A stretch of DNA of 64,000 nt from Candidatus Levyibacteriota bacterium (GCA_003152105.1 PLZJ01000002.1:108257-172256); one strand, 5' to 3'; positions 26,410 through 63,490 are shown, counted from the first letter of the stretch. The notes: generated by a model from the sequence alone, not told the origin. Translations and numbers: made by a program.

Positions 26410-26424
26410 CAATAAAGTTCTATT

Positions 26425-31164: not shown

Positions 31165-31168
31165 ATTT

Positions 31169-31999: not shown

Positions 32000-32001
32000 A
32001 G

Positions 32002-34726: not shown

Positions 34727-35920
34727 TCACTGACTATCTTTTTCATAGACTTCTTGTGATTGTTCTTTTATGTATTCTTCTATTCCAAGTTTATCATTTT
34801 CGGTATTCAATTCATTCTGTGAAGATTGTCCTGACTCTGGGATAAGATGAATCTTAATTTTATATGCTCTTTCTTTCTTATAATCGTAAAAGGGGTCTTC
34901 TGGTATTTGAAAATAAGCCTTTAGGGCTTCTGCCAACCGCTGCTTCTTCTTTTTGAAACTGTCTACCTCTCTTTTAGGCAATCCCAGTTTAGAGGTCATT
35001 TCCCACGATAACTCACCATCATGAAATGCAAGCAAGCGTAAAAAATCCCATTGCTTGTTTGGCAGTTTATTTTTACTGTTCTTAAATCCCATTTCTTCGT
35101 AATTCGTGTGACGTGTCTGGTCTTTTGCTTTTATAATCGCTTCATGTCCGTCAAGAAATTTGATAGTGATATTTTCCCAAGTAACATTGTCTGGAAACAC
35201 CTTTTTAACTGCCACCCTAGAGGTACTATCTGTTTCAAGTTCCTTATTGGGCGTCTGCACCAATTGTTTTAATTCGTTTAACCTTTCGACAACGTTTTGA
35301 GCAGAAACAGAAGGACTAAAAACGATACGAACATCACTTTTGGATTCGTTAAAATATGGTGTAAATCCGATATTCTTTCCAAGCAACACAAAGACTTTCT
35401 CTACGTCATCAACGCTAACGCCATTAGTAACAAAATCTGCTTTCGGAAATTTTAGCTCCTCTATATTGTTGGTCTGATTAGAAGTTACCCCTACCAGATG
35501 ATACTTTTGGATTAGTATTGTAATCACTTGAGAAATTTTTGATTTTAGGCTTTTGTCAAAATGCTCAAGACTAGAAGCATAATCTTTCATGTTTCTTTTT
35601 AAGACCTCATTCTCAATCGCTGTAAATAATTCATCAAATTGTGGTTGTAGTATTGTTATTGCGTACTCATCCATGCCAATAGCTACGACTTGTCCAAACT
35701 GAGGAATAAGACTCATTCTTATAGTACCTTTACGCTGTAGTTCGGACAGTATTTCTTCCTGCTGCTTAAATGTTGGTATGGCAGGTTCACTATGAAGAAT
35801 ATAAATTGGAAAAGTTACGCTTTTACTTTGTAGGTTCTTTTTAAGAAGTATTCGTTTAATTTCTTGTAGAACCCACCATACATTTTGAGCATGGTTTGAA
35901 TCAACTTGTGTCATATTCAT
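34727..35920 (-). CDS. hypothetical protein (397 aa), first gene of the element's minus-strand run
   Basis: Long ORF; start faces the divergent promoter region 35921-36013. Confidence 0.45.
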   Translation of the reverse strand: MNMTQVDSNHAQNVWWVLQEIKRILLKKNLQSKSVTFPIYILHSEPAIPTFKQQEEILSELQRKGTIRMSLIPQFGQVVAIGMDEYAITILQPQFDELFTAIENEVLKRNMKDYASSLEHFDKSLKSKISQVITILIQKYHLVGVTSNQTNNIEELKFPKADFVTNGVSVDDVEKVFVLLGKNIGFTPYFNESKSDVRIVFSPSVSAQNVVERLNELKQLVQTPNKELETDSTSRVAVKKVFPDNVTWENITIKFLDGHEAIIKAKDQTRHTNYEEMGFKNSKNKLPNKQWDFLRLLAFHDGELSWEMTSKLGLPKREVDSFKKKKQRLAEALKAYFQIPEDPFYDYKKERAYKIKIHLIPESGQSSQNELNTENDKLGIEEYIKEQSQEVYEKDSQ

Positions 35921-45103: not shown

Positions 45104-46801
45104 ATGAAACTCCGTGCCCTGCTCATATTATCCTTATTTATTGGCATTTTTTCTTTTTTCGCCTCCGGAGGACCAGCATTTGCGCAACAAGACTCTTCAT
45201 TTGCAAATCCTTCACAGAATAATCCATATTTACAACTTAATTTAGATAATAATGTTCCAAAAAATTTCCACACCTTCACACAAAGCTTAGTTCTTGAACT
45301 TCTGTCTAGTTCAACATGTTTAATTGCTGGCGTAGATGCATCAAACCCTAAGCAAGGTTGTTTAGGCACAAATCCTAAAACAGGAAAAATAGGATACGTT
45401 AAAAATGGAGGAGCTATTGAAGCAATGGGAACAATGGTTGGCTCACTCTATACCCCAACAGTTTCTTCCGGTGATTATATTGGATATTTAAATAAAAATT
45501 TTCAGGTAAAAAGTGCTTATGCGGCTACAGGTAGCTATGGGTTTAATGGCTTACTTCCTTACTTAAATGTATGGGTAGTTTTTAGAAACCTTGCGTACTT
45601 AGTTTTTGTCATATTATTTGTGGTGGTAGGATTCGCAATCATGCTAAGGCTAAAAATTGACCCACGTACCGTAATGACTATACAAAATCAGATTCCAAAA
45701 CTTATTGTATCCATACTTCTGGTAACTTTTTCTTATGCAATTGCAGGACTACTTATAGATTTAATGTGGACAAGCACGTTTTTGGTGATCAATATCTTCC
45801 ATGAAGCTCAACCTGCAATCAGCTCAACAGACGCATACAACAATATTGATAATCAACCTTTTGGATTTGTGAATGCTGCAGCTGTCCCAAACGGAGGGAA
45901 TATAGTTAGTCTTGCTGGACAAGGAGCTGGGGACGCAAAAGACGTCATCATTAGCATGTTTTCAAATAGCAGTCCAATTGTAAAACAGGGCACCGTTTTA
46001 AATGGAGGCACTATTCTAGGAGGTGCTGCAGTAGGTGCCGCTGGAGGAGCAGCAATAGGCGCAGGAATAGGAGCTTTTGCTTTTGGAGCAGGAGCTATAC
46101 CTGGAGCCGTAATTGGAGGTTTGGTTGGTGCAATTGGAGGAGGCCTTTTTGGAGCTGCAAATGGAGGCGTGAATGTTAATGCACTTGTTGGAAATGTTCT
46201 GACATTTATAATTGGCTACGTTATTTCTATTCTTGTATTTCTTGTATTGATGGTGGCACTTCTAGTTGCTCTTTTTAGATTGTGGTTTACCTTATTAAAA
46301 GCGTATGTGTTTGTACTAATTGGAGTTGTTCTATCCCCTTTATGGTTCTTAATCGGCACTTTGCCTGGAAAAAATGGATTTAATATGTGGCTAAAGTTTA
46401 TGCTGGGTAATCTGGCTGCATTCCCTGCAGCTGTAGCAATGCTACTGATGGGTAAATTATTTATGGTTTCTGGAGCTTATGGTGCAACATTTGTACCTCC
46501 TCTTATTGGAGATCCAAATGGTGCTTCTTTTTTGCCACTTGTCGGCATAGGATTTATATTAGCTACTCCAGGCGTAGTTGAGCTAACAAAATCAGTTATG
46601 AGCGGAAAAGGACCACAAGGCATTCCAGGTCTCGGAGGATCACTAAAATCAGGGCTTGCTGCACCAAGTAGAATACTAAGTGGAGGCGTCTCTTACTTTA
46701 CCAACCCACACTACAGTAGCAAAGGAGGCACAGACAAGAAAGGTGGCATTGTTTATCCAGGATCGATGTTCACCCGTCTATTTGGAGCTTTTAAAAGATA
46801 A
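45104..46801 (+). CDS. VirB6/TrbL-like polytopic membrane protein (T4SS inner-membrane component candidate)
   Basis: Signal peptide, ~120-aa extracytoplasmic segment, at least 6 TM helices and a Gly/Ala-rich stretch (GGAAVGAAGGAAIGAGIGAFAFGAGA), co-located with other T4SS-like genes. Confidence 0.4.
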   Translation: MKLRALLILSLFIGIFSFFASGGPAFAQQDSSFANPSQNNPYLQLNLDNNVPKNFHTFTQSLVLELLSSSTCLIAGVDASNPKQGCLGTNPKTGKIGYVKNGGAIEAMGTMVGSLYTPTVSSGDYIGYLNKNFQVKSAYAATGSYGFNGLLPYLNVWVVFRNLAYLVFVILFVVVGFAIMLRLKIDPRTVMTIQNQIPKLIVSILLVTFSYAIAGLLIDLMWTSTFLVINIFHEAQPAISSTDAYNNIDNQPFGFVNAAAVPNGGNIVSLAGQGAGDAKDVIISMFSNSSPIVKQGTVLNGGTILGGAAVGAAGGAAIGAGIGAFAFGAGAIPGAVIGGLVGAIGGGLFGAANGGVNVNALVGNVLTFIIGYVISILVFLVLMVALLVALFRLWFTLLKAYVFVLIGVVLSPLWFLIGTLPGKNGFNMWLKFMLGNLAAFPAAVAMLLMGKLFMVSGAYGATFVPPLIGDPNGASFLPLVGIGFILATPGVVELTKSVMSGKGPQGIPGLGGSLKSGLAAPSRILSGGVSYFTNPHYSSKGGTDKKGGIVYPGSMFTRLFGAFKR

Positions 46802-49800: not shown

Positions 49801-49858
49801 CTGTCAATTCAGGCTCCGAATTTCGGATAGTAAAATTTGGTCGTTCAGTCATAGCCAA
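46805..49858 (-). CDS. large (1017 aa) acidic hypothetical protein with single C-terminal TM anchor
   Basis: Only one hydrophobic helix, at the extreme C-terminus (ILTAIFGAFVIGFIEAG). Convergent with the VirB6-like gene, stops 3 nt apart. Confidence 0.5.
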   Translation of the reverse strand: MAMTERPNFTIRNSEPELTAHTAGTTMNRGVVFMPEGSTSTPENQPPLIKPRNFDQKSSFGPEEGELEQFAKSYFGKSFDAQTDQKKAASYSIAAGIFNELANSYNISPKSFMASLPEQINRIRTNIDEGRMNSDVGNEAIKYLEKLNFQYIDRERAEALKDRDERVGFLLTASAKESLNSDAEAWLDTQFDRIYQMADQGNELSSDHVQSVQRLVQEAETHLDTQVHIDMNDFRKLSEEYSKLQAQGSFDGSPESEQAKLKTNYVTLMREKQAQIDKKNAVLKNFSVNFSNRLSLIFMRSTLDRHDFEGAQGSAKNLMAKGLLYGLSQYDSTTQYMINRMDELSDDMRVQDPNKRLEVEVAANIVNIIKGEQLEIQKRLAQSGIGPFAEIWSRTFGDDTAKEEELKRAIERASRTAYDIFVSSGRLGIISARNHHLYGVESFGNDPSRVFANIYNIHDMTLAKFDLLNQEDQEYMDYTYEDLADGYMKDNHMSHMGKEEKHELGIKLFRDLYAVPDFFSSGWRMVEFRKNLEKVLEHRTAEKSLTAGWVSEHKNLLESNPLEYKRQYDAIIAAIPKETLSAEIKRFKEEDPKRFINEATNFGLFMQIKAAGASKEGRTEKLTGLWEKVAKFKTEEIIKLVRDRTPDQISALNAQMKLYGFENYDAFRKQYGAEIRLLRDKGFHEAVPRQINFGSLSAEDKQFLNKATGKEGAGEAIEKVYKSMQSFIESNGIQVVGKGRMSVIDALIKDPRFEDIYVRTLDVTDGLFDQIENIPDNWNMLPVSREASSEPGSDMLVRNYNDFGNAIKAAQALIAFIKSHGSDIESKAKHAEEFGEAISQYSGQDNGRAKGVRYTLGTWYLASRMPLVFDSLGISKLPLRKSMSEIERIYGHEATPLSRDELRVKLDHIRQLLTGSMEKSAQTWAQLTEKERNDRIEKYGVKAEGKFNKERHKGMKKKYKETQKYYHELEVMLRVMGKDIASRRILTAIFGAFVIGFIEAGKIGIDSSSALTEGIIQ

Positions 49859-49960: not shown

Positions 49961-51286
49961 ATGGAAACACAACACTTTGAGGCTCTTTATCCAAAAGATT
50001 CATATGGTAAAGAGATTAAAAAATTGCATACATATATTAAGGAAGGAAATTCTATCCAGGTCATTGGATTGCCAGGTGTTGGTAAATCAAACTTATTAAA
50101 GACTTTAACTTATAACAAAGTTGTTAGAAGCACACAATTTAATAAAGGCCAGGAATGGATTCATTTTGTTTATCTAAATTTTGCTGAAATTAGAGAAAGG
50201 CCTCTACTTGATGTTACAAAATTCATTTTTATCTCACTTTTAGATTCAGTTGCTGAACGACAAATGACAGAAGTATACGAAAAATTAAATCAATTATTTA
50301 AAGAGGTCTTGTTGTTTCAAGATGAACTTGTTCTATTTCAAGCTCTTAAAAAAGCAGTAGATATTATTGCAATTGAAAATCAATTGACTATTGTATTATT
50401 ATTTGACAGATTTGAAGAATATATACCGAGTGTGTCGAATGTATTTTTTTCTAACTTAAGGGTGCTTCGAGACAGAGCCAAGTATCGCTTTTCTTGTGTA
50501 TTTGCAGTAAATAGACCGCTCGAAGATGTTCTAGATACTTCTATAATTGCAGATTTCTATGAATTTATAGCTGGACATTCTCTTTTTCTGCCTCTTTATG
50601 ATAATTCTGTACAGTCATTTAGAATTTCTTATTTAGAGAAGACTACCGGGAAAAAAATTAGTCATTCACAGTTAGTTAAAGTTTTTGAATTAACAGGCAG
50701 GCACAGTAAGCTGACACGAATTTGCATTGAAGTATGCTTAGAAGATGAAGTGAAAAAGGATAATTTAGTTGAATTCTTATTAAAGCAACCGAATGTAAAC
50801 GGAGTGTTAAAAGAAATTTGGTATGCGTTAACTCCTGCAGAGCAAACGCATCTAAAAAAGATGACTTCAAAAGATTTACCAAATGATACTCATGAATTTT
50901 TAATACTATCAGGCCTTATTAAAGAAAATACAATCCAAATTCCGCTTTTAAAAGATTATATTAAAAATCTACATAAAATTGGAGAAGAGACTTATTTCTA
51001 CAACAACACTACCCACATAATAACTAATGGGCAACATAATATATCAGACTTATTAACTAAAGCTGAATTTAAACTTTTAAAAATTCTCCTCGAACATAAA
51101 GATGAAATAGTTGATAGAAATACAATTATAGCAACTGTCTGGGATGAAAATAAATCAACTACTGGAATAACTGATCAAGCGCTTGATCAGCTAATTTTCA
51201 GGCTTCGGAAAAAAATAGAAGAGAATGTTAATTTACCAAAACACATTATTACCATTAAAGGTAGAGGAATTCGTTTTAATCCTTAA
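49961..51286 (+). CDS. AAA+/P-loop ATPase fused to C-terminal OmpR/PhoB-type winged-helix DNA-binding domain
   Basis: Walker A GLPGVGKSNLLKTL. C-terminal ...LTKAEFKLLKILLEH...IITIKGRGIRF (trans_reg_C-like). Confidence 0.6.
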   Translation: METQHFEALYPKDSYGKEIKKLHTYIKEGNSIQVIGLPGVGKSNLLKTLTYNKVVRSTQFNKGQEWIHFVYLNFAEIRERPLLDVTKFIFISLLDSVAERQMTEVYEKLNQLFKEVLLFQDELVLFQALKKAVDIIAIENQLTIVLLFDRFEEYIPSVSNVFFSNLRVLRDRAKYRFSCVFAVNRPLEDVLDTSIIADFYEFIAGHSLFLPLYDNSVQSFRISYLEKTTGKKISHSQLVKVFELTGRHSKLTRICIEVCLEDEVKKDNLVEFLLKQPNVNGVLKEIWYALTPAEQTHLKKMTSKDLPNDTHEFLILSGLIKENTIQIPLLKDYIKNLHKIGEETYFYNNTTHIITNGQHNISDLLTKAEFKLLKILLEHKDEIVDRNTIIATVWDENKSTTGITDQALDQLIFRLRKKIEENVNLPKHIITIKGRGIRFNP

Positions 51287-51327: not shown

Positions 51328-53103
51328 ATGAAATTCTTCTTAAGAACTCTTTCCGTTTTTGCTATCACAAGTATTTGCTTATTCGTATTTACCTTTACTG
51401 CTAAAGCAACATTTGTCCGTGGAGACCCAAGTTGTATAAACATTCCTGTATGCGTATACTACAATGATATCGCTAAGAGTGGCACTGACGTGCTTTCGTC
51501 AGGAGACACTGTTCCCAATACGGTTAATCAATTGCAAGTTGGCATTACAACACATAACCCGACAAAAAACTATACTCCAACTATTCCAATTAATAAAGTA
51601 ATTATTTTGGTTCGTGACAGTGAAAAAAATTATGATCCAACCGACGAAAACAACCCATTTGACAATAATAGTGCAATAATAAATTATGTTGTTTACAACA
51701 CCGGAGACTGTAGTATAGATTTAAATGGGGGCACATCGGTTTGGACAAAGGACACAAGTTCAGCTTGTTCTACAAATGGAACTTCAAACATCCACTTCAG
51801 TGATAGTATTGATATAACAAAATTGTTTCAAGATAGCCCAATTATATCCGGACATACTTATGAAATTGACGTTTATGGTGCGCATAGCCTTTATGACACT
51901 AATTACTATACTGTTGTTAAAGGAGGCAGCGGGGAGAATTGTAAAACTATTGTATGGGGAGATAGTGATGGAAATGATTATTGTGATTTTCCAACTACAA
52001 ATATGTCGCTAAAATTTGTAGTAGAACCTCCTAATTTTAAATATGTAAGTGACAAGGCACATTTTGACTGGAGCGATACCACAGTCTCTCCAGATACAAA
52101 CGCATTACTAGGTAGAGATGTAATAATTCATATTCCGGAAGCACTAAATAGACCTGATTCTGGTGTAAGTGATGGTAATTCAGATAATTCGGTAACGTAT
52201 AAATATGCTATTGAAGGGTATGGAATTAGCTACACCGAAGGAAATTGCTCTCAACCTGATTGCTATCAAACATATACGCTCCCCAATATTAGTACGATAC
52301 CCAAAGGAGTAAATAGCTTAGATTTATATATTTTCGGTCCAAATTCAGAAGGACATTATCAAGATTTTGTTAACCATCCTGGTGAGGCGGCAAACTTAAA
52401 AATACTCTCAATCAGTATTGATAATGCATATAGCTACATACTCGCAAATGATCCGGATGGAAGAAAAGAAAATGATTGTATATATGAAAATCCTCCTTCA
52501 ACTTGTCCTTTTAGACCTATGCCCACAAATTATCCCAATTATAAACCAGGTCAATATATTATTGCAGGAAGTCAAGAGAATAGTAAACACGCAGTGTTAT
52601 CATGTCACGGACCTGGAATATATCAAAATTCAAATGAGAATTCTTACATTTGCAATAATGAAGACACTTATGTAGCTTGTAATGGAAATCCTTCTTTAAC
52701 ATCTGTTAAACAGAATGGTCAAATTGAATATAACAATATTCGGTGCGTTAAAAGAAGCGATATTAAACCTCTTTCTCCCTGCACTCACCCAGAGGTAAGC
52801 AAAACTGATGGAGAGATCTCATGCGCAGGGGTCCCAACTGCACTCGGCACTCTTCCAACAGATCCTGAAGGTCTGGTTGCAGCTATATTTGGGATCTTAC
52901 TTAGCCTGTCTGGAGCAATTGCCCTTTATTTAATAGTTAGAGCTGGCTATAGAATTATGACTTCAGAAGGTACACCAGAAAAAATTACTCAAGGGAGAGA
53001 AGAATTGGTTTCAGCAATAACAGGATTGCTATTCATTATATTTTCGCTTGTGCTTTTTGAGATTATTACTCATTCATTTTTACATATCCCGGGCATATTA
53101 TAA
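51328..53103 (+). CDS. secreted ~500-aa Cys-rich extracellular protein fused to a C-terminal T4SS-pilin-like two-TM module
   Basis: Signal peptide, Asn/Thr/Cys-rich body, and a C-terminal 70 aa (AAIFGILLSLSGAIALYLIVRAGYRIMTSEGTPEKITQGREELVSAITGLLFIIFSLVLFEI) that aligns with the three downstream small proteins. Confidence 0.5.
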   Translation: MKFFLRTLSVFAITSICLFVFTFTAKATFVRGDPSCINIPVCVYYNDIAKSGTDVLSSGDTVPNTVNQLQVGITTHNPTKNYTPTIPINKVIILVRDSEKNYDPTDENNPFDNNSAIINYVVYNTGDCSIDLNGGTSVWTKDTSSACSTNGTSNIHFSDSIDITKLFQDSPIISGHTYEIDVYGAHSLYDTNYYTVVKGGSGENCKTIVWGDSDGNDYCDFPTTNMSLKFVVEPPNFKYVSDKAHFDWSDTTVSPDTNALLGRDVIIHIPEALNRPDSGVSDGNSDNSVTYKYAIEGYGISYTEGNCSQPDCYQTYTLPNISTIPKGVNSLDLYIFGPNSEGHYQDFVNHPGEAANLKILSISIDNAYSYILANDPDGRKENDCIYENPPSTCPFRPMPTNYPNYKPGQYIIAGSQENSKHAVLSCHGPGIYQNSNENSYICNNEDTYVACNGNPSLTSVKQNGQIEYNNIRCVKRSDIKPLSPCTHPEVSKTDGEISCAGVPTALGTLPTDPEGLVAAIFGILLSLSGAIALYLIVRAGYRIMTSEGTPEKITQGREELVSAITGLLFIIFSLVLFEIITHSFLHIPGIL

Positions 53104-53144
53104 TATTGCAATATGATTCGGATTTTTTTATTATAATGTAATAT

Positions 53145-53492
53145 ATGACCAATCAAATCGCTCTTACTTTACCTGGATACCCTAGTACTTTTCCACAACC
53201 AAATGGACTTCCAAATTCACTAAGCAAAAACTCTGGTGCATCAGGTGCAGGAATTATAAGCTTAGGATTAACACTACTTCTACTTATGGCAATATTTTAC
53301 GCACTATTCCGAATTATGGTAGGCAGCATACGTATTGTAATTTCTAGAGGCAATAAAGAGAAATTTGAAAATGCTAGAAAAACAGTAATTTATGCGGTAA
53401 TCGGACTTTGTGTGGCTTTTTCATCGTTTTTCATAATAAATTTACTTGGTAACTTTGTAGGGATAAATCTTCTAAATACAATACCTAAATAA
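53145..53492 (+). CDS. T4SS pilin-like protein (TrbC/VirB2-type two-TM hairpin)
   Basis: TM1 - FRIMVGSIRIVISRGNKEKFENARKTVIYAVIGL - TM2 ...IINLLGN; the shared pattern is Y.I..G.R.I.SGGD..K....R..I..A.IGL......IN. Confidence 0.5.
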   Translation: MTNQIALTLPGYPSTFPQPNGLPNSLSKNSGASGAGIISLGLTLLLLMAIFYALFRIMVGSIRIVISRGNKEKFENARKTVIYAVIGLCVAFSSFFIINLLGNFVGINLLNTIPK

Positions 53493-53525
53493 AATAGTAC
53501 TTGACAACCTTAACAATATGTTACT

Positions 53526-53960
53526 ATGATAAATAAGATGAAAAAAATTAGTTCTATTGTAATTGGCATATTTCTACCCCTAGTAATGGCAGTACCTGCT
53601 TATGCAGATTCAGCTTGCGCAAATTCAGGTTCAGGATTTAACTTTTATCTTCTTTGTCAATTTGGTCAACCTGGTGGCACCTTGTCTACAGGTTCAATAA
53701 TAGGTAGAGTAGTTGCACTACTGCTTTTAGCAGCAGTTTTAGTAGCTTTAATATTTTTAGTAGTCGGGGGTATTCGTTGGATAACTTCTGGAGGAGACAA
53801 AACAAAATTAGATTCTGCGCGAAGTCACATCGTAGCAGCAATAGTTGGTCTTGTTATAGCACTACTTGCATACCTAATAATAAATGTAATTCTTCAGGCA
53901 TTTGGACTAAATGCAGGAGGAATCAGCAACTTTAATCTCCCAAGTATAACCGGAAAGTAA
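53526..53960 (+). CDS. T4SS pilin-like protein paralog
   Basis: Signal peptide; IFLVVGGIRWITSGGDKTKLDSARSHIVAAIVGLVIALLAYLIINVIL. Confidence 0.5.
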   Translation: MINKMKKISSIVIGIFLPLVMAVPAYADSACANSGSGFNFYLLCQFGQPGGTLSTGSIIGRVVALLLLAAVLVALIFLVVGGIRWITSGGDKTKLDSARSHIVAAIVGLVIALLAYLIINVILQAFGLNAGGISNFNLPSITGK

Positions 53961-54002
53961 TCGTTATTGCATTCCTCTCTCTCCTTTGTTACGCTTAATA
54001 TT

Positions 54003-54335
54003 ATGAACTGGAATTCTTTCGCAGGTTGTATTTATTCGGGAGATCCTAAAGATCAAGTAGCTACAATTAAATGTCTCCCTGCAGTCTTCTATAATGTTAT
54101 AAGTGCCTTAATTATCCTAGGCGGTGCTTTTGCAGTATATTACATTATTTATGCAGGCTTAAAATTAATTCATTCTGGTGGAGATCCTAAAGAAGTCGAA
54201 ATTGGAAGAAAAACACTTCAATATGCATTTATTGGATTAATAGTTGTACTTGGTTCTTTTTTATTAATTAATCTCGTTGCACAAGTTACTGGCACAAACT
54301 GCATTACTGCGTACGGCTTCTTAAAATGTAGATAG
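54003..54335 (+). CDS. T4SS pilin-like protein paralog
   Basis: YYIIYAGLKLIHSGGDPKEVEIGRKTLQYAFIGLIVVLGSFLLINLVA. The track start at 53967 is TTG, so ATG at 54003 is preferred. Confidence 0.45.
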   Translation: MNWNSFAGCIYSGDPKDQVATIKCLPAVFYNVISALIILGGAFAVYYIIYAGLKLIHSGGDPKEVEIGRKTLQYAFIGLIVVLGSFLLINLVAQVTGTNCITAYGFLKCR

Positions 54336-54368: not shown

Positions 54369-56159
54369 TTATAAAAGTGGTAACACACCCAAAGCACCAG
54401 CTCCCAATCCAGCTGTTCCAAGTGCTGCTGCGACTATAGCTCCAGTTAAAAACTTTTTCCCGTGCTTACGAATTACAAAATCAATTATCTCTCTTCCAGA
54501 ATGACCTTGGATTGCACCCTCTTCTTTAGCTTTTTGTATCTCATCATCAAGCGCTTTATTTTTTGTTAACGATTCCGTGATTAACCCCTCACCCCATGAG
54601 CTCAAGGTGACTTTTTCTGCTTCAGCTTCGGTAAGCTTTCCATTCTTCAATCTATGAGAAAGAAGAGTTTTACCAACTTCTCTACCTTTTTTTGCAACAT
54701 AATCTGGATCCTTATTGAATTTTTCGTCTATTTCTGCTTGACTGATTCCGGTTCCTGGTGAGGTTAAAATTTTAGTTAATAATGCTCTTTCACCATTTTT
54801 CATTAAATCTTCGAAATCTGCATTTATTTCAGGTTTTTTACGTACCAAAACTTTTCTTCTCCTTATTATACCGTGGTTATTTCGAGTAGGCATTTCTGTC
54901 CATCGATCCAGTAATCCCTGAGATAAAACTGTGTCTATTCTTGTTAATGCATTATCGGATTCAGTTTTTAAACGGCCGACTTCTGCAGCATCTGCTTCTG
55001 AAAGACGACTATATATTAAATCCTCAGATGCCTCTGAAAATGCGTTTCCTAATTTTAGTTGCAATTCCATTTCTTTTTGCGCATGATCCCTAACCGCAGC
55101 ATCATAATCAGCTCTAGCTGATAAATATTCAGTATGTGCAGTTCTATCTTCTAAAGAAGCGTCCGGTTTTTGACCCTCAAGTCTCAGTTTATTTTCATTT
55201 AATTCCGTTTGATTCTTCAATAAAGCTTCTCTGTCTGATATCATTTTCTGAGTTACACCAATTTCTCTATAGTTATCGTCCAAAACTTGAACTGCCGCAT
55301 CTAATTGTCCTTGAAAAGTAGCTATGGTAGCAGTTGCTTTTCCGGAAGTTACCGCGTCATCTAAATCTTTTTGCAATCGCTTAACTGCAGCTGAGTAAAT
55401 TCTCGATTTATCTTGTTGTGCTTGCAATAAAGGCTCACGACTTCTTAAAGCTTTATTAAGTTTCTCGAGTTCCACTTTCTTTACTCCGGGAACTCCTGCT
55501 GTGTCTCCATATTCTGCCAACTGACTATTTATATGTTTTATTTCTGCATCTATTCCACTTAATTTTGTGTGTGCAACATCATATTTTATTTTAGTAACGT
55601 CTCTATTTTTTACGGCGTCTAAGGAGATATCTTCAATAGAAGTTGATGTTGCGCTTCTTACAACTTCTTTTAATTTATATTGGAATCGAGGTTCTTTTAC
55701 AAATGCGTCTATTACAGCAGTTTTTTCTGTGCCCGATAATGAATCAAGAAAAGTAGCTGCTTCAGGAGATGACGCATATATACTGTGCTCAACGATGTCC
55801 CTAACAAAACCCCTGTCTGCACTATCTGTCAATGCCGAAACTTCTCCACCTTTTTCTAAGAACTCCTGCACTCTTTTTAACTGTTTTTGAGCATCGACTC
55901 TTCGTGCTTCCTCTACTTTTGTAACTATTTTTGTCCCATCTGCTTTGCGCTCATGACCAAAGCTTTCATTAATACGCGCGTCTAACTGTCCGAAATCTAA
56001 AGGCTTATCCCTATGAGCTTCTTCAAGTGCGGCTTGATGACCTTTCTCTGCCATTGTTTCTCTAAGGGACTTTGCTTCGGCTTCAGACCCTGGCACAGCA
56101 GAAGTAATACCAGTATCTTTCACTTCAACGGCAGCTCTAACAGGTGCTTCTCTATTCAT
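54369..56159 (-). CDS. coiled-coil, Ala/Glu/Lys-rich hypothetical protein (596 aa) with C-terminal TM anchor
   Basis: Single C-terminal hydrophobic segment FLTGAIVAAALGTAGLGAGALGVLPLL; otherwise hydrophilic and coiled-coil-like. Confidence 0.45.
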   Translation of the reverse strand: MNREAPVRAAVEVKDTGITSAVPGSEAEAKSLRETMAEKGHQAALEEAHRDKPLDFGQLDARINESFGHERKADGTKIVTKVEEARRVDAQKQLKRVQEFLEKGGEVSALTDSADRGFVRDIVEHSIYASSPEAATFLDSLSGTEKTAVIDAFVKEPRFQYKLKEVVRSATSTSIEDISLDAVKNRDVTKIKYDVAHTKLSGIDAEIKHINSQLAEYGDTAGVPGVKKVELEKLNKALRSREPLLQAQQDKSRIYSAAVKRLQKDLDDAVTSGKATATIATFQGQLDAAVQVLDDNYREIGVTQKMISDREALLKNQTELNENKLRLEGQKPDASLEDRTAHTEYLSARADYDAAVRDHAQKEMELQLKLGNAFSEASEDLIYSRLSEADAAEVGRLKTESDNALTRIDTVLSQGLLDRWTEMPTRNNHGIIRRRKVLVRKKPEINADFEDLMKNGERALLTKILTSPGTGISQAEIDEKFNKDPDYVAKKGREVGKTLLSHRLKNGKLTEAEAEKVTLSSWGEGLITESLTKNKALDDEIQKAKEEGAIQGHSGREIIDFVIRKHGKKFLTGAIVAAALGTAGLGAGALGVLPLL

Positions 56160-56162: not shown

Positions 56163-56510
56163 TTACTTTGCGTCTCCTCCTAATGCCGCTTTCGAGAGCT
56201 CTAATGCTTCATCAACTTTACCTTGCTTTGTAAGAGACTCTATGTCAGTTGCGGTACTCTTATCTTCTTTCACTTTTTCCTCACCCTTTTCGATAGTTAG
56301 AATTTTTTGAAAAATATCCCATTGAAAAGCTAATGCATATAAGAATTCTGATAAATCGGTTTTTGTTTGTATTCTTTGCATATTTTTTTGAATTTGACCT
56401 GAGATATCAACAGCTTCATCTTGCGTTAAGATGCCATTATGTAAACCATCAATCATTGCAATTGTTAATTTCTTTTCGATTTCATCTTTATGTTGCTGAT
56501 CTAATTGCAT
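56163..56510 (-). CDS. small acidic hypothetical protein (115 aa), operonic with the downstream coiled-coil gene
   Basis: Stop lies 4 nt before the start of the 54369-56159 gene. Confidence 0.4.
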   Translation of the reverse strand: MQLDQQHKDEIEKKLTIAMIDGLHNGILTQDEAVDISGQIQKNMQRIQTKTDLSEFLYALAFQWDIFQKILTIEKGEEKVKEDKSTATDIESLTKQGKVDEALELSKAALGGDAK

Positions 56511-56745: not shown

Positions 56746-58107
56746 ATGGAAAATCATCCTATACCGCAAGACATTACAGGTTTTCAGTTTAAGCTAATTG
56801 GCGAAATGACAGTCAAACAATTTGGCTACATTGCTGCTGGTGGAATACTTGCATGGATTTTTATTTTCGTTTTACCTCTTCCAGTATATATTAGGTTCCC
56901 TATAGGGTTACTATTTGCAGGGCTTGGATTATCCTTAGCATTTTTACCTATTGAAGGAAGACCAATGGATACAATGCTTGGCGCTTTTATGCTTACGCTG
57001 ATTCGACCTAATCAATATGTATTTCGAAAGCATGAATCACTTTTAACGCCAATTTTTGCGCAAAATATACCTCAGCCTTATGTAAAAACAGTATCTCAGA
57101 AGACACACTCAACTAAGTATACTGAGGAGCAAGTAGAAACATTTATTCAGAACTATCCCAAAAAAGCAAAAAATAAATGGGATGAAAAAGAACTGGCATA
57201 CAACAAAACGCTTGCAGAACTATATGTTCCACTTCCAGCTATAGATCAAAATCAGCCACCAATCCAGGAAACTGTAAAAACAATACCAATTCCTGTACCA
57301 CAACAAACTGCTCAAGGAATACCTCAATCGCAAATGTTGGTACATAATACTCTTAGTACTACTCAAGTTTCTGTTCAGCAACCTTCAGAAAAATCTAAAG
57401 CACAAGAAAATATTAATGCAGTTCTTGAAAATACACAAAGTTCTACCGAAAATAGCATTAAAAAAACTGATAACGATAAGTTAGAAAAGGAAAAAATTAA
57501 AAGAGAACTAGAGGTGGCAAGACTCGAGGAAGCAAATCAACAAAATGAATCACTTGCAAAAAATGCTCATGAGAAAGTCAATGAATTAGAAAAATTATTA
57601 AATGACAGTTCTACGCAAAAACAAAAGCTTGAACAAGAACTTTTACAACTCAAAAAACAATTAGAAGGTAAGAATCCAGATGTTTTCACTCCATCACAAG
57701 GACCAGAAAAGCTTCAAGAGACAAAAAATGTACAAGTAGTGCAAAAAAGCATGACAAAGGCTACCGGCCTACCTCAAGCTCCCGAAGCACCAAACTTACT
57801 AACAGGTATTGTTAGAGATCCAAGAAATAATCCATTACCAAACATCTTAATTGAAGTGAAAGACAAAGATGGAAATCCAGTAAGAGCATTTAAAACAAAC
57901 ATGTTGGGGTATTTTGCATCTGCAACGCCTCTCCAAAATGGCATATTTACCGTTGAGTTTGAAGACACGCAAAATGTTCACAAATTTGATGTCATTCAAC
58001 TTGAAACAAAAGGTCAAGTAATAATGCCTCTTGCCGTTACGTCTGTTGATGCTAGAGAAGAACTGCGAAGATCGCTCTTCACATCTCCTCAAGAAGGAGC
58101 AAATTAA
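56746..58107 (+). CDS. VirB3-like two-TM membrane protein extended by a coiled coil and a C-terminal beta-sandwich (carboxypeptidase-regulatory-like) domain
   Basis: Two N-terminal TM helices (FGYIAAGGILAWIFIFVL / IGLLFAGLGLSLAFL), positioned immediately upstream of VirB4. Central Q/E/K coiled coil; C-terminal GIVRDPRNNPLPNILIEVKDKDGNPVRAFKTNMLGYF. Confidence 0.4.
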   Translation: MENHPIPQDITGFQFKLIGEMTVKQFGYIAAGGILAWIFIFVLPLPVYIRFPIGLLFAGLGLSLAFLPIEGRPMDTMLGAFMLTLIRPNQYVFRKHESLLTPIFAQNIPQPYVKTVSQKTHSTKYTEEQVETFIQNYPKKAKNKWDEKELAYNKTLAELYVPLPAIDQNQPPIQETVKTIPIPVPQQTAQGIPQSQMLVHNTLSTTQVSVQQPSEKSKAQENINAVLENTQSSTENSIKKTDNDKLEKEKIKRELEVARLEEANQQNESLAKNAHEKVNELEKLLNDSSTQKQKLEQELLQLKKQLEGKNPDVFTPSQGPEKLQETKNVQVVQKSMTKATGLPQAPEAPNLLTGIVRDPRNNPLPNILIEVKDKDGNPVRAFKTNMLGYFASATPLQNGIFTVEFEDTQNVHKFDVIQLETKGQVIMPLAVTSVDAREELRRSLFTSPQEGAN

Positions 58108-58109: not shown

Positions 58110-58787
58110 ATGGCAAACCAAAAAAAAATTCAAGCTACCACTCAAAAATTCACCGAAATCAAAGCGATCGTAGATGACATTGTATTATTTCAAAATGATA
58201 CTGCGTGTTTAATCATAGAGGTTAGGGCTACAAATTTTGCGCTCATGTCCAAACAAGAGCAAGATATTAAAATTTATTCATATGCTTCGCTACTTAATTC
58301 TCTCTCATTTTCACTTCAAATATACATTCATAATAAAAAAATTGATATTTCATCATACTTAGGCTTGCTAGATGTAGAAATAAAAAAAACACAAAATAAG
58401 CTTTTGCAAGCAAATATGATGATGTATAGACAATTCGTAGAACAACTAGTTAAGGTAAATAGCGTGCTTGATAAACAATTTTATGTGGTCATTTCTTATA
58501 ATCCTTTAGAGAGAGGGGCAGTAAATACTGCTACAACATTAAAGGGGCAAGGAAAACAAAACGTCATTGACCAAGCTAAGGCTTCTCTTCACAGTAAGTC
58601 AACATCAATTTTAGCTCAGTTAGCACAACTCAATCTACCAGCCAAAACACTAATGGCAAATGAATTAATCCATTTGTTTTATGGTATTTACAATGAAGAC
58701 TCCATCGACTCAACAGAGCTAATAGCAGATACTAATACTCCTATTGTTAGATCTGTAATGCCATTACAAAACAAAAAGGAAACATGA
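58110..58787 (+). CDS. VirB4 N-terminal domain encoded as a separate ORF
   Basis: IVDDIVLFQNDTACLIIEVRATNFALMSKQEQD...SLLNSL matches the VirB4/TrbE N-terminal region. Its stop overlaps the next ATG (ATGA). Confidence 0.5.
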   Translation: MANQKKIQATTQKFTEIKAIVDDIVLFQNDTACLIIEVRATNFALMSKQEQDIKIYSYASLLNSLSFSLQIYIHNKKIDISSYLGLLDVEIKKTQNKLLQANMMMYRQFVEQLVKVNSVLDKQFYVVISYNPLERGAVNTATTLKGQGKQNVIDQAKASLHSKSTSILAQLAQLNLPAKTLMANELIHLFYGIYNEDSIDSTELIADTNTPIVRSVMPLQNKKET

Positions 58788-60778
58788 AATTACCAAACTT
58801 AAAAACAAAACTACCAAAAAATCGAAATATAGTAAAAAAACCCATAGGAGTTCCTCCGGCAATAGCCCACTTTGATAAAGGACTTGCTTCTATTCAAGAT
58901 ATCATAGCACCATCATCAGTTGAAGTAGATTTTCGACACATACGTATTGGAGAAACATTTTACAAAACATTATTCGTAGTAGGATATCCAAGATTTATAT
59001 CTCCAAATTGGCTTGATCCACTTATAAATTTTAATCACTCAGTCGACATCTCTATGTTTTGTTATCCAGAAGCATCCTCAGATGTCTTAACTGATTTAAG
59101 GAGAAAAATAGCAGAAATGGAAGCAACAATTTCTTCACAAATTGAAAACGGACAAGATGTAGATCCAAAAATTAGTGCCCAACTTGAAGATGCACTCGCA
59201 GTACAAGAACAATTAGCAAAAGGCGTGGAGAGATTTTTTCAGTTTGGCTTTTATATTACTCTCTCTTCTTCAACCACTCAGGAATTAGAAGAAATAACCA
59301 AACAACTTCACGCAACACTTTCATCTATGCTTCTCACTGCAAAAGCAGCTACTCTTCAAATGGAAGAAGGGTTTAAGTCCACAATCCCAATGGGAAGAGA
59401 CAGTCTTTATATAACTCGCAATATGGATACAACGTCTTTAGCATCAACGTTTCCATTTACTTCAGCAACACTCACGCAAAACAAAGGAGTTCTCTATGGC
59501 CTAAATGAACAAAATGGATCTCTTATTATTTTTGATAGGTACTCATTGGAAAATGCAAATGAAGTAGTTTTAGGAAAATCTGGAGCCGGGAAATCATATC
59601 TTATTAAATTAGAAACAATGAGGCAATTTATGTTTGGGACTGAAGTAATTATTATTGACCCTGAAGGCGAATATGACGCACTAGTTCAATCTCTCGGAGG
59701 CGAAAGGGTAATTTTTACTGCTTCTAATCCAGTTAAAATTAACCCTTTTGACTTATCGGGTATGTATGAACCTGGGGAAAATGAACTCGGATTAAAAATA
59801 TTATCTCTCCATGGATTACTTCGAATTATTATGGGAAATCTAGACGCAACGCATGATGCTATCCTAGATAGAGCACTTGTTGAAACTTACAGACAAAAAG
59901 GAATTACGCCAGATCCAGCTACTCAATCAAAAATACCTCCCACCATGCAAGATCTTTATAAAGTACTTCTTGGTTACGAAGATCCCAATGCGCAAGAACT
60001 TGCATTTAGATTAGAAAAATTCATTAAAGGTTCTTTGGCAGGAATCTTTAATCAACAATCAAATTTTGATATTTCAAATCCACTAACTGTTTTTGATATT
60101 AAATTTCTCGAAGAAGAATTACGACCGGTAGCAATGCATATAATATTGGATTTTGTATGGACTAAAGTAAGAAAAACTCTAAAAAAAAGATTGCTCATAC
60201 TTGACGAGGCATGGTATGTAATGAAGTATGAAGATTCAGCTTCTTTTGTATATGGCATTGCAAAAAGAGCCAGGAAATACTACCTGGGCCTTACTACAGC
60301 AACGCAAGATGTGGAGGACTTTTTGGCTACAGATTATGGAAAAGCTGTACTCTCCAATTCATCTATTCAGGTGCTACTTAAACAAGGAACTTCATCTAGC
60401 GAACAAGTCGGTAAAATATTCTATCTGACTGATTCGGAAAAGCAATTACTTCAATCGGCTCAAATCGGAGAAGGCTTATTTTTTGCAGGCCAGAATCATG
60501 TGATTATTCGTATTATTGCTGCCCCTCATGAACACCAAGTTATAACTTCAGATCCTAAAGAAAAACTAAAAATGGAACAAAAGGCTGTTCAAGATGCAAT
60601 ACCAGAAAAACCTATGAATAATACTGCGCAAACTAATCCTCAAAAAACGGCAGAATCATCACAAAATATCAACAGCACTGAAGCCATACGGCCACCTGAG
60701 AATTTAACAACGCCAATTATGCCGATTACAAACGAAGTTTCGAACGTGGCGTCTCCACCAAATAAACCAACTCAGTAA
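58784..60778 (+). CDS. VirB4/TrbE-family T4SS ATPase (ATPase domain)
   Basis: Walker A GKSGAGKSYL; Walker B RLLILDEAWYVM; conserved arrangement of the VirB4 C-terminal half. Confidence 0.8.
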   Translation: MKLPNLKTKLPKNRNIVKKPIGVPPAIAHFDKGLASIQDIIAPSSVEVDFRHIRIGETFYKTLFVVGYPRFISPNWLDPLINFNHSVDISMFCYPEASSDVLTDLRRKIAEMEATISSQIENGQDVDPKISAQLEDALAVQEQLAKGVERFFQFGFYITLSSSTTQELEEITKQLHATLSSMLLTAKAATLQMEEGFKSTIPMGRDSLYITRNMDTTSLASTFPFTSATLTQNKGVLYGLNEQNGSLIIFDRYSLENANEVVLGKSGAGKSYLIKLETMRQFMFGTEVIIIDPEGEYDALVQSLGGERVIFTASNPVKINPFDLSGMYEPGENELGLKILSLHGLLRIIMGNLDATHDAILDRALVETYRQKGITPDPATQSKIPPTMQDLYKVLLGYEDPNAQELAFRLEKFIKGSLAGIFNQQSNFDISNPLTVFDIKFLEEELRPVAMHIILDFVWTKVRKTLKKRLLILDEAWYVMKYEDSASFVYGIAKRARKYYLGLTTATQDVEDFLATDYGKAVLSNSSIQVLLKQGTSSSEQVGKIFYLTDSEKQLLQSAQIGEGLFFAGQNHVIIRIIAAPHEHQVITSDPKEKLKMEQKAVQDAIPEKPMNNTAQTNPQKTAESSQNINSTEAIRPPENLTTPIMPITNEVSNVASPPNKPTQ

Positions 60779-60800: not shown

Positions 60801-62933
60801 ATGGCAACTACATTACCTCCAGATCAAACTCAGAAAGATGAAAAAATCAGATCTGTAAAGAGTTTAATTACTTTAGCAAACAGAGATAGAACAGGAACGG
60901 TCTCAAGAATAATTAACAACCCTAATTTTATCGAAAGTCAAATTCAACTAAAAGAACTACTAAGAGTTCATCCAGAATACGATATTTCACTCGAGGCACT
61001 AAAGGATTATCAAGATGATCTCGGGAAAAAAGAAACTGAACCAAAAAGCGAAAATAATACAGAGAAAGACAGCCATGATGAGTCGCATTCAACTCACCAT
61101 GAAACTATTCACCTTCATGTAGAAAACGAGTCAGATACTAAAAAAGTGGATCCAAATGATTATTTATTAGAAGAAAATTATGTAGATGCTCCGAAGCTAA
61201 CAAAACAAGGCGTAGTCGATAGTTATTTAAATGATCGACATGTCGCTGAATATCAAAAAGTTATGGCAAAAACATTTTCTCATGAAAATCCAAATGCTAC
61301 GATCGAAACATTTTATGATGTATTTGCAAAAGACTATGCTCCTGAATTAGAAAAACAAGAAAAAATCGAAGAACAAAGAATTTATCTAAATCAACCTGAA
61401 AAAGACCCACTATACCAACAGCTATTAAGTAATATCGAAACAGAAACTACTATTGCACGAAAGATGACAGATGAAGGAAAAATAACTAAATATGGATCTA
61501 CTGACATGAAAGAGATAACCAGAATAATTAATGAGAGACATTTTTATGCTTTTATACGTAAATACCCAGGAAAGGTTCAATCACATATTTCAAATCCAAT
61601 AGTAACGAAAATAGTTGAACACATTAAAGATGTTGAAAGTCAAAAAAAACAAAAAGTAAAAGATAAAAAAACTCCAACTACCCAAGCAGCTCCGACTAAA
61701 ATTCCCATAGAAGTTAAAAGTCAGCAATTCAATAGCGAACATCCTAAAACTTCAAGCACAACTAGCTCTTATGCACACAAACAAACTTTTCGTCCACAAA
61801 ACGATATAAGTAACTTTTCTAGTCAACCTCTTAGCTCAACATTCAATTTTTTTAATAATTTTTCGCCCAGAATTAGATCAGTTTCTAGACCAACGGCAAG
61901 TAATGAAGCAAGAGGAATTAGAGTTCAATCTAGAACAGCTAGGTCTATAGCAAGAAATCCTTTGACCTCATCGCTACTTAGGGGTGCTACTAGAGTAGGT
62001 GGCGGTTTAGCATCCAATGCCCTCAAGCTAGCTGCTAGAACACCTTGGTTCTGGATAGTGATTGGTATTATTGTAGGCATTTTTATACTTATAGCAGTTA
62101 TTATATTAATAATTGAAATAATAACTGGCAAGTTACCAATAGGCGGAGGCGGAGGCGGAACACTTTTACCAGGTCAACATTTCTCGTTAACCAAAACAGC
62201 TTCGCCAGCATTTGTAACAATTGTTCCTGGACATGAAAAAGAAGCAAGAATTACCTATACGATCACTCCCGACTTTAACGGTGACGGTTCAGTAGATATA
62301 ACAGATCCTATACCCAATGGCACAAACTATGTTGATGGTTCAGCTTCGCCCGATCCAAGCTCCAAGCAAACGACCGGCAAAAATGTTACATCATTAACAT
62401 GGAATAATATTGAAAATGGAACTAGTATTACATTCCAGGTTCAACCCACGCACGATGGAGCGTTTACGAATATAGCATCTGGAACTCTCTCGGGAAATTC
62501 GGGCATAAGCCCAACAGCAAACACTAATACATGTAATGGTCGCTACACAACAGATATTCAAAATAACTACTTGCTTCATAAAAATTTTGGAGATCCCAAT
62601 TGCACCTTGATAACAGCAGCCGAAAGAAATGATTTATATAATTATATTAAACAGGTTGATCCTGCCAATGCTGACTGGTGGTTTAATACTATTATTCCTT
62701 GCGAAAGTGGATATGACCCAAACTCGTGGCTTAGCCCTCAAGGAGGAACTCCTGATCCTCATGGAGCATGGGGGCTTTTTCAAGACGGTAGTAGTGAGCC
62801 AACTCCAGGAGGGAATGGTAATGGATTAAACGGCAAATACGATAGAGGGGATGTTGAATGGCACCAGCAAGTATTTAATGCTGCGCATTTACTTCAAACA
62901 AATGGGTCTGGTTATTGGGCGTGTTCAGGCTAA
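60801..62933 (+). CDS. membrane-anchored protein with C-terminal lytic-transglycosylase-like (VirB1-like) domain
   Basis: Acidic N-terminal region, central TM (WFWIVIGIIVGIFILIAVIILII), Gly-rich linker. The C-terminal IIPCESGYDPN...GAWGLFQ resembles the SLT catalytic ES...GLMQ motifs. Confidence 0.45.
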   Translation: MATTLPPDQTQKDEKIRSVKSLITLANRDRTGTVSRIINNPNFIESQIQLKELLRVHPEYDISLEALKDYQDDLGKKETEPKSENNTEKDSHDESHSTHHETIHLHVENESDTKKVDPNDYLLEENYVDAPKLTKQGVVDSYLNDRHVAEYQKVMAKTFSHENPNATIETFYDVFAKDYAPELEKQEKIEEQRIYLNQPEKDPLYQQLLSNIETETTIARKMTDEGKITKYGSTDMKEITRIINERHFYAFIRKYPGKVQSHISNPIVTKIVEHIKDVESQKKQKVKDKKTPTTQAAPTKIPIEVKSQQFNSEHPKTSSTTSSYAHKQTFRPQNDISNFSSQPLSSTFNFFNNFSPRIRSVSRPTASNEARGIRVQSRTARSIARNPLTSSLLRGATRVGGGLASNALKLAARTPWFWIVIGIIVGIFILIAVIILIIEIITGKLPIGGGGGGTLLPGQHFSLTKTASPAFVTIVPGHEKEARITYTITPDFNGDGSVDITDPIPNGTNYVDGSASPDPSSKQTTGKNVTSLTWNNIENGTSITFQVQPTHDGAFTNIASGTLSGNSGISPTANTNTCNGRYTTDIQNNYLLHKNFGDPNCTLITAAERNDLYNYIKQVDPANADWWFNTIIPCESGYDPNSWLSPQGGTPDPHGAWGLFQDGSSEPTPGGNGNGLNGKYDRGDVEWHQQVFNAAHLLQTNGSGYWACSG

Positions 62934-62950
62934 TATGATATAAATAAATT

Positions 62951-63490
62951 ATGAACGAATATTCAAAGAGGCAAAAAATAATAATACTTACAGTGGGTAT
63001 AATTATACTTTTTGGTACCATTGGAGTTATTACATTTTTATTTCTTAGCAATATTAATAATAAAACTCAAAGCTACTTACCCACACCAACGACTAAGCCC
63101 GCTCTTAGAACAGTTCCGCTTGTTATTTATAATTCGAGTAAGTCAAACGAATTATTAAAAAAGCTTGAAAATAGACAAGCTCTAACACAAAACGATACCT
63201 CAATTAGACAAAAACTAATTAGTCCCTTAAATGGGCAGAGCGGAGATATTCAACTTACAAATGATTATGATATCCAATACCTAAGTAGCCCAGATCAATT
63301 CCAGGTAGAAATTCTATCTACCAATATTAGTTTAGCTAAACAAGAGGCTGTTAATTGGTTTATTGCTCAAGGAATGAGTCAAGACGGTATATGCAAATTA
63401 CCACTGAGTTTTTTTATGAATCATTCAGTCGCACAGCAGCTACAAGGAAAAAACATTACTTTCAATCCATTGCCTGATAATTGTAATTAA
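62951..63490 (+). CDS. bitopic membrane protein (N-terminal TM + ~140-aa extracytoplasmic domain), possibly VirB8-like
   Basis: Assignment by topology and position only. Confidence 0.35.
   Translation: MNEYSKRQKIIILTVGIIILFGTIGVITFLFLSNINNKTQSYLPTPTTKPALRTVPLVIYNSSKSNELLKKLENRQALTQNDTSIRQKLISPLNGQSGDIQLTNDYDIQYLSSPDQFQVEILSTNISLAKQEAVNWFIAQGMSQDGICKLPLSFFMNHSVAQQLQGKNITFNPLPDNCN

Follow-up and report, generated by a model that had tools for sequence, protein, structure and literature searches.

A conserved four-gene pilin array in a type IV secretion locus of Levybacteria, with a first member that joins a conserved hairpin to an orphan ectodomain

Tandem arrays of VirB2-like pilin genes near virB4 are already known from Patescibacteria. 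A series of predicted pilins in the type IV secretion system (T4SS) cluster of Ca. Southlakia epibionticum was reported as essential (Wang et al. 2023, PMC10633639), and in this organism, the one genetically tractable Patescibacterium, T4SS and pilin array are essential for epibiotic growth (PMC10633639). With the Pfam model PF18895 (T4SS_pilin, Type IV secretion system pilin), Quiñonero-Coronel et al. (2025, PMC12102498) collected 441 arrays of 2-11 pilin genes in Patescibacteria; the arrays were most abundant in Microgenomatia and Saccharimonadia, identity within arrays was ~25%, antigenic variation or host adaptation was proposed as their role and PrgB-like adhesins were not found. A pilus on the monoderm T4SS of Patescibacteria was considered plausible in a 2025 review (PMC12857230), and the function of this T4SS has been described as completely unknown (PMC11665869). 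Here we analyzed a pilin array of four genes, named p1 to p4 in the order of transcription, in a stretch of 64,000 nucleotides (the window) from a Candidatus Levyibacteriota bacterium (GCA_003152105.1 PLZJ01000002.1:108257-172256), which is part of a metagenome scaffold of ~1.14 Mb. Levybacteria are Patescibacteria of the class Microgenomatia.

The window array shows the features by which the VirB2-like arrays of Patescibacteria were recognized (2-11 tandem genes near virB4, low mutual identity) and is as such not new. Undescribed in the searchable literature are the architecture of p1, the constant place of this protein within a set of four and the contrast between its conserved anchor and its variable head; a pilin fused to a domain of several hundred residues is not mentioned in PMC12102498, PMC10633639 or PMC12857230, protein lengths in the pilin table of PMC12102498 not being covered by this statement. 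As a whole, the region is best explained as the pilin operon of a chromosomal monoderm-type T4SS in a Levybacteria genome, with p1 as a modular pilin carrying a host-contact head; we put the probability of this reading at roughly 55%.

The initial annotation had described an array of four genes, the first fused to a large Cys-rich domain, whose products share a two-TM (transmembrane) hairpin with a loop motif and resemble T4SS pilins of the TrbC/VirB2 type. These points held up. The four co-directional open reading frames (ORFs), separated by gaps of 33-42 nt, were recovered at the positions given in Table 1, and the p1 ectodomain (aa 28-512) contains 16 Cys, i.e. 3.3% compared with 0.70% in the remaining 54 window ORFs (4.7-fold, binomial P ~5e-7). 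Hydropathy analysis revealed two hydrophobic spans per module in all four proteins and an additional N-terminal span in the 591-aa and 144-aa proteins. In the four-module alignment, S..G in the loop and an Arg at the start of helix 2 were invariant and an A..GL motif followed, with the other three modules 21-26% identical to the p1 module over the aligned region. All four proteins exceeded the gathering score of PF18895 (26.6 bits) by a margin of 1-15 bits, and the C-terminal 125 aa of p1 alone reached 30.5 bits. The model of the classical family, PF04956 (TrbC/VirB2), was directly matched by none of the four at E up to 10.

The four genes differ in their N-termini. p3 has a signal-peptide-like N-terminus and a Cys31-Cys44 pair, p4 carries two Cys in its N-tail and two in its C-tail, and no obvious signal peptide was seen by hydropathy in p2 and p4. 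The Cys pairs in the N-tails of p1, p3 and p4, together with the Cys enrichment and even Cys number of the p1 ectodomain, fit an extracytoplasmic location. Alternative starts would change two of the lengths, to 140 aa for p3 if it begins with MKKISS (53538) and to 122 aa for p4 if it begins with the TTG at 53967. The short intergenic gaps indicate that the four genes are co-transcribed. A promoter and terminator scan of the region gave counts not above shuffled expectation. One sigma-70-like promoter match (11/12) at 53501-53530, ending just inside the annotated p3 start, is noted as a lead only: it would yield a nearly leaderless transcript from the MKKISS start, which was picked by one gene caller, and it bears on separate expression of p3, such matches not being enriched over shuffles here.

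To compare the locus among relatives, 80 VirB4-matched loci were drawn from a one-genome-per-species collection; their VirB4-like ATPases are 64-76% identical (best segment) to that of the window. Where named, these loci mostly come from Levybacteria/Patescibacteria metagenome-assembled genomes, and many titles are generic or bear other names. A pilin hidden Markov model (HMM) built from database matches was run on all ORFs of the 80 loci and, where the flank was long enough, located pilin genes upstream of virB4 in almost all cases. Position-specific HMMs, trained without the window genes, sorted the latter as p1, p2, p3 and p4. The order p1-p2-p3-p4 was found in 28 loci; a further 7 show it with one additional copy of p1 or p3. 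When the five best cross-species BLAST matches of each module were collected for 24 canonical four-gene arrays, 475 of 480 came from the same array position (p1 120/120, p2 115/120, p3 120/120, p4 120/120). Thus, p1 to p4 are ancient, non-interchangeable orthologous groups, kept in fixed order across related Levybacteria species. Such position-specific orthology points to fixed functional specialization and not to a recently diversifying repertoire, and supports the view of the array as a structure of four specialized subunits. Within arrays (the canonical arrays of the related loci and the window), the paralogous hairpins have a mean identity of 34%.

The p1 ORF was recovered unchanged from independent assemblies and is, because of this identity, not a frameshift or assembly artefact. 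Its product consists of a signal-peptide-like N-terminus, a large head, a short neck and the pilin hairpin (Table 1). In a single-sequence AlphaFold model the two hairpin helices span residues 513-545 and 550-584 with pLDDT 64-84; when the C-terminal 125 aa were modelled together with 120 homologues, the helices (fragment positions 47-79 and 84-119) reached pLDDT 90-95. The last ~30 residues before TM1 gave a convincing match to the p1 neck profile, and the Cys-rich 130 residues before the neck a weak match to the p1 profile. The neck motif, matched by the HMM of the pre-TM region and modelled as a small beta-hairpin, has a Cys/Thr/Gly/Thr core that is invariant or nearly so in p1 orthologs, the other positions being majority consensus.

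The head is an orphan. It is acidic (57 D/E vs 29 K/R), rich in N/S/T/D/G/P/Y and has the composition of a beta-rich secreted domain; internal repeats were not found in the ectodomain. Full-length p1 was searched against 5.8 bn proteins, where the ectodomain was matched by nothing except p1 itself, and an exhaustive phmmer search with aa 26-515 against 1.84 bn representative proteins returned only the self-match. The ectodomain likewise matched no PDB sequence at E up to 10 and no family in Pfam, NCBIfam or PHROGs, and BLAST of the head against the 45 other large pilin-module proteins (at least 195 aa) of the related loci remained without a match.

Among related species, the anchor of p1 is conserved and its head is variable. 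The p1-class proteins of the related loci (n = 38) range from 154 to 647 aa, the window p1 being the second largest, and the great majority of them have a signal-peptide-like N-terminus and are Cys-rich. Directly before helix 1 they share the neck P..PC...C..V.TA.G...TDP, followed by a hairpin that ends with IPGF. A profile search of the 5.8 bn proteins yielded 365 p1-type proteins, the best-scoring of 101-219 aa, and minimal forms (~125 aa, 2 Cys) contain just signal peptide, two-Cys loop and hairpin. Since p1 orthologs extend from this minimal form to 647 aa, the head represents an insertion of very variable size between signal peptide and neck. Of the four hairpins, that of p1 is conserved best: mean cross-species identity over the last 80 residues was 60% for p1, 40% for p2, 51% for p3 and 50% for p4, and the hairpin of the window p1 is 35-49% identical to p1 orthologs of other species. 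By tblastn across species, ~93 aa of p1 could be aligned, whereas p2-p4 aligned over most or nearly all of their length.

For the most part, similarity among p1 heads does not extend beyond the ~86 residues next to the membrane. Within some sub-lineages (e.g. loci L013, L016, L018 and L026) heads are shared, with 30-43% identity over ~330 aa; the head of the window p1 matches no other p1 head. Some loci contain two tandem p1-type genes with different heads (L039 4175-6530, 464 + 330 aa; L058 4454-6565, 381 + 306 aa; also L011 and L021), an indication that the p1 slot allows heads to be duplicated and exchanged. A diversity-generating retroelement (DGR) or cassette recombination was considered as source of the variability and rejected, as no template/variable pairs or inverted repeats involve the array and the ectodomain is repeat-free.

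Several lines connect the PF18895 hairpins with other families. One homologue (P0022) passes both PF18895 and PF04956 (28.4 bits, gathering score 27.9) and thereby provides a transitive link to the classical pilins. In a Foldseek search with the p1 hairpin model the best PDB match was 8dfu, a conjugative pilus from Aeropyrum pernix (prob 0.91, TM 0.61, E 1.1, i.e. not significant), with generic helical hairpins close behind, and a profile of the four modules found chance matches and no solved pilin among PDB sequences. A further relation was obtained for the Mbov_0395 family (NCBIfam NF045849). The scores of p1 to p4 against this model (20.1, 17.6, 18.4 and 25.4 bits) lie below the curated cut-off of 40 bits, so they are not equivalog members; however, p4 finds an Mbov_0395 family pilin-like gene (L083 8752-9207) on the Pontibacillus plasmid NZ_CP062975.1, where a CD1110-type VirB4 and a peptidoglycan hydrolase follow 4 kb downstream, and profile comparison (hhalign) confirmed the homology with a probability of 96.6% and E 5e-10, with the loop motif included. 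Hence, such hairpin proteins also occur in ordinary monoderm conjugation clusters, beyond Patescibacteria. This suggests that the pilin came along with the monoderm-type T4SS and was not borrowed from diderm systems, and it bears on a proposal in the literature by which VirB2 was co-opted from diderms in Patescibacteria, as MPF-FATA systems lack pilins.

How p1 might work can be outlined from the VirB2 systems. The upstream STAND-ATPase/winged-helix regulator gene and p1-p4 probably form one operon. The hairpins of p1-p4 would be inserted into the membrane such that the short loop (S-x-G-D/N/T-P-E-K...R) is cytoplasmic and the two termini are outside, which is the topology of VirB2. In p1, the signal peptide would place the head outside, helix 1 would run from outside to inside, the loop TSEGTPEK..GRE would be cytoplasmic and the C-terminus would return to the outside. 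The lumen of F- and T-pili is lined by the loop, and the two termini point to the outside; for this reason, an N-terminal head is expected on the outside of a filament. A head of 485 residues appears too bulky for every subunit of a VirB2-type filament, which makes a role of p1 as a minor, tip or initiating subunit the most likely, and one of p2-p4 may be the bulk subunit. By analogy, VirB4 and a VirB6-like platform, with VirB3/TrsD encoded nearby, would extract the hairpins and stack them, as in the assembly model for VirB2 systems summarized in PMC12857230. Docking into the machine or filament would be the task of the p1 hairpin, and the species-specific, presumably disulfide-stabilized head, set between the signal peptide and the Cys-loop/TALG..TDP neck, would be displayed outward to the host-cell surface, so that p1 may present a host-contact head on a T4SS pilus or directly on the secretion system. 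Among the families passing the E-value limits, neither VirB5 nor a PrgB-type adhesin was detected in the locus; the Pfam scan of p1 (E up to 0.1) returned PF18895 only and no VirB5/TraC family, and the NCBIfam search the pilin-like family only. In the phylum, too, no such adhesin is detected (PMC12102498); p1 may fill the adhesin role and functionally replace the missing VirB5. Turnover of the head may track the diversity of host surfaces. The initial annotation had likewise suggested a tip or adhesive pilin subunit, a plausible idea that agrees with the pattern of a conserved anchor and a hypervariable head.

A number of points weigh against this model. In the single-sequence AlphaFold model of p1, residues 24-498 have a pLDDT below 50, and 'adhesin-like' as a label for the head is therefore a judgement from composition only. 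The topology of p2 and p4 is assumed, as these proteins have no obvious signal peptide. In fifteen related loci the array was seen as p2-p3-p4 without p1; although truncation affects some of these loci, the full upstream flank is present in several, so p1 is not universal. The steric argument for p1 as a minor or tip subunit draws on the general geometry of F- and T-pili. To our knowledge, a pilus has been seen on no monoderm T4SS, and the closest annotated relatives outside Patescibacteria (the Mbov_0395 family of Mycoplasma integrative and conjugative elements (ICEs) and the Pontibacillus plasmid) come from systems for which no pili are known.

In the main competing explanation, which we consider rather less likely than the pilus operon, no filament is formed and the four hairpins belong to the channel of a monoderm T4SS, as components of the membrane or of a short conduit, which may also be true of the Mbov_0395 family; the p1 hairpin would then be an anchor or docking module that holds a surface adhesin or wall-spanning spacer beside the channel. 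The sub-threshold NF045849 matches of all four proteins and the location of the Pontibacillus homologue within a Gram-positive CD1110-type VirB4 cluster agree with such a channel, the T4SSs of Gram-positive bacteria are in general portrayed as lacking pili (PMC12102498, PMC12857230), and four fixed, non-redundant paralogs resemble a hetero-oligomeric complex more than one polymerizing subunit. The link of the family to true pilins through P0022, the conjugative pilus as best (non-significant) fold match and the plausibility granted to a patescibacterial pilus (PMC12857230) speak for a filament instead. Channel and pilus operon differ solely in filament versus none; the idea of an adhesive head survives in both.

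Two further explanations were judged far less probable. The initial annotation had read the diversity of the paralogs as a sign of antigenic or functional variation. In the first of the two explanations, the genes would encode interchangeable major pilins, used one at a time for antigenic or host-range variation, as has been proposed for the VirB2 paralogs of Anaplasma and Bartonella. A variant repertoire would account for the low hairpin identity within arrays and has been suggested for patescibacterial arrays (PMC12102498), yet it is largely refuted by the separate orthologous groups at each position and their fixed order across species, and we regard it as very improbable. In addition, co-transcription is indicated by the short gaps (33-42 nt), neither repeats nor inversion sites nor DGR-like template/variable pairs reach into the array, and the variation sits in the p1 head between species and not among the paralogs. 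Least credible of all is that the genes encode unrelated two-TM proteins such as holins or bacteriocin immunity proteins, with the Pfam match as an artefact of hydrophobic composition. The scores are merely 1-15 bits above the threshold, and two-helix hydrophobic hairpins do draw weak spurious matches to many families; the polar loop motif, however, is common to hundreds of PF18895 proteins with E down to 1e-40, synteny with VirB3 and VirB4 is strict in 60 or more species, and the neighbours are T4SS genes without any lysis or bacteriocin context. Homology to holins, named at the outset among the findings that would overturn the pilin assignment, was not found in the PHROGs search (no match for three proteins; best E for p4 0.058, not significant), and profile searches and context together refute this explanation.

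Table 1. Features of the pilin array and neighbouring T4SS genes (window positions)
Feature	Position	Strand	Evidence
AAA/STAND-type ATPase with OmpR-type winged-helix domain	49961..51286	+	Trans_reg_C 63.7 bits; AAA_22, AAA_16 sub-threshold
p1 modular pilin, 591 aa	51328..53103	+	PF18895 27.3 bits, aa 516-579 only
p1 signal-peptide-like N-terminus, aa 1-27, cut between ...FTAKA and TF	51328..51408	+	hydrophobic span aa 1-30; A-x-A site read from sequence
p1 orphan ectodomain, aa 28-484, 14 Cys	51409..52779	+	homologue searches negative; composition
p1 pre-membrane motif (neck): Cys485...Cys499 loop, then V-P-TALG-T-LPTDP	52780..52866	+	alignment, HMM match
p1 pilin hairpin: helices 513-545 and 550-584 joined by loop TSEGTPEK..GRE; C-terminal IPG	52864..53100	+	Pfam, hydropathy, AlphaFold
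p2 pilin-like protein, 115 aa	53145..53492	+	PF18895 29.2 bits; HMM class p2; homologue in 60 related loci
p3 pilin-like protein, 144 aa	53526..53960	+	PF18895 31.4 bits; HMM class p3; homologue in 61 related loci
p4 pilin-like protein, 110 aa	54003..54335	+	PF18895 41.6-42 bits; HMM class p4; homologue in 62 related loci
PrgI/VirB3-like membrane protein with C-terminal CarboxypepD_reg-like domain	56746..58107	+	PF12666 31.6 bits; 75/80 loci
TrsD/TraC-like protein, resembles N-terminal part of VirB4	58110..58787	+	PF26593 precomputed match; 79/80 loci
VirB4-like T4SS ATPase	58784..60778	+	PF19044 P-loop_TraG 92.6 bits, DUF87, AAA_10; found in 80 loci
Polytopic membrane protein with signal peptide	45104..46801	+	~8 or more hydrophobic spans; 23 related loci, upstream end
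Two genes downstream of virB4: 710 aa, one TM; 179 aa, N-terminal TM	60801..63490	+	homologues in 23 and 22 related loci

The genes around the array are those of a T4SS (Table 1). PrgI/VirB3-, TrsD- and VirB4-like genes follow 2.4-4.5 kb downstream, virB4 starting 4.4 kb downstream; the TrsD/TraC-like protein also gave a sub-threshold match to the N-terminal part of the VirB4 model NF045975. Upstream, the STAND-ATPase/winged-helix gene lies 41 nt before p1, has a homologue just upstream of p1 in 44 of the 80 related loci and is a candidate for a dedicated regulator of the pilin operon. The polytopic membrane protein (45104-46801) is without a Pfam match and is a VirB6-like candidate by topology only; the two genes downstream of virB4 had no significant family match. 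Three minus-strand genes (54369-56159, 56163-56510 and 46805-49858) interrupt the otherwise conserved locus. Their products are Cys-free, highly charged and without family matches, and are present in 1, 1 and 4 of the 80 related loci; the two long ones (596 and 1017 aa) look coiled-coil-like and have a single C-terminal hydrophobic anchor, which the 115-aa product lacks.

The locus is a vertically inherited chromosomal T4SS locus and not a recent mobile element, because the GC content of the window is uniform (and low, ~35%) and the synteny of the locus is kept across the 80 matched loci; on the same grounds, an ICE or plasmid origin was rejected. No relaxase was seen among the window ORFs scanned. 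A T4SS coupling-protein-like ATPase (TrwB_AAD_bind, DUF87) is encoded on the minus strand at 1264-3654, ~50 kb from the T4SS locus, adjoined by a tyrosine recombinase at 200-1060 on the plus strand. Elsewhere, the minus strand encodes a large serine recombinase (29431-31326) that borders directly on a tRNA (29372-29462), whose 91 nt are an 82% repeat of the tRNA at 26423-26513, 2.9 kb upstream, and several ORFs without family matches then follow; the region 29372-35920 may be an integrated element. The window also contains tmRNA (24487-24852), a class II-like ribonucleotide reductase with TSCPD domain (6474-8939) and two adjacent class A penicillin-binding proteins (13124-17697), a housekeeping context that fits a peptidoglycan-bearing monoderm with reduced genome.

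With the most conserved anchor and the most variable head, p1 is a concrete candidate for the host-touching part of this machinery, and its head may decide what the cell attaches to. The p1 model predicts tip location, low stoichiometry and swapping of host range, and the orthology of p1-p4 shifts the reading of arrays from a variant repertoire to a four-component structure. If a monoderm episymbiont carried p1 at the tip of its T4SS pilus, the p1 head would be the host-specificity determinant of an essential machine of Patescibacteria and a direct handle for predicting or re-targeting host range. More tentatively, and with the odds somewhat against it, p1 could be the first recognized modular VirB2-type pilin, its hairpin serving as a universal adaptor onto which Levybacteria graft rapidly replaced, lineage-specific, disulfide-rich heads for host recognition.

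Compared with the known arrays of Patescibacteria (SEML1_0006-0019 of Ca. Southlakia epibionticum ML1 and that of Ca. Nanosynbacter lyticus TM7x), the window array shares the PF18895 domain, tandem divergent paralogs (~25-34% identity), the position next to virB4 and a monoderm-type T4SS locus without a relaxase nearby. It differs from them, as they are described with small pilins only, by the large ectodomain of p1 and by the fixed orthology and order of p1-p4. With the Mbov_0395 family of Mycoplasma ICEs and Firmicutes plasmids it has in common a homologous hairpin and loop (ITSQGDPKK vs SGGDPEK) and the location upstream of a VirB4-like ATPase in a monoderm cluster; those systems, however, have a single copy without a large ectodomain on mobile elements, whereas the window has a four-gene array at a conserved chromosomal locus. 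A hydrophobic two-helix hairpin of ~70 residues with a short polar loop and a conserved basic residue is shared by the window pilins, the classical TrbC/VirB2/TraA proteins (PF04956) and archaeal CedA1, and the classical proteins are encoded beside VirB3 and VirB4 as well. Unlike classical VirB2, the window pilins show no evidence of cyclization or a long leader, and we know of no classical VirB2 that carries a large N-terminal domain.

In its proposed role as a minor, tip-located and host-contacting subunit, p1 would resemble VirB5/TrwJ of Gram-negative T4SS pili, of which VirB5 may nucleate assembly on VirB6 according to one model (PMC12857230). The two are not homologous, VirB5 having neither the pilin fold nor a membrane hairpin, and the analogy is functional only. 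A structural parallel is offered by modular type IV pilins, e.g. PilB and PilC of Streptococcus sanguinis, minor subunits in which a conserved polymerization module is combined with a bulky adhesive module. Type IV pilins have a class III signal peptide that is cut by prepilin peptidase, and their extra module is C-terminal. In p1, the class III motif (cut after G, then F/M-x-x-x-E) is absent from the N-terminus, where MKFFLRTLSVFAITSICLFVFTFTAKA is followed, after the predicted cut, by TF; instead, p1 has what looks like an ordinary A-x-A signal peptide, its extra module is N-terminal and its pilin module is a C-terminal two-helix hairpin. Thus, p1 and the modular type IV pilins follow the same design principle in unrelated filament superfamilies.

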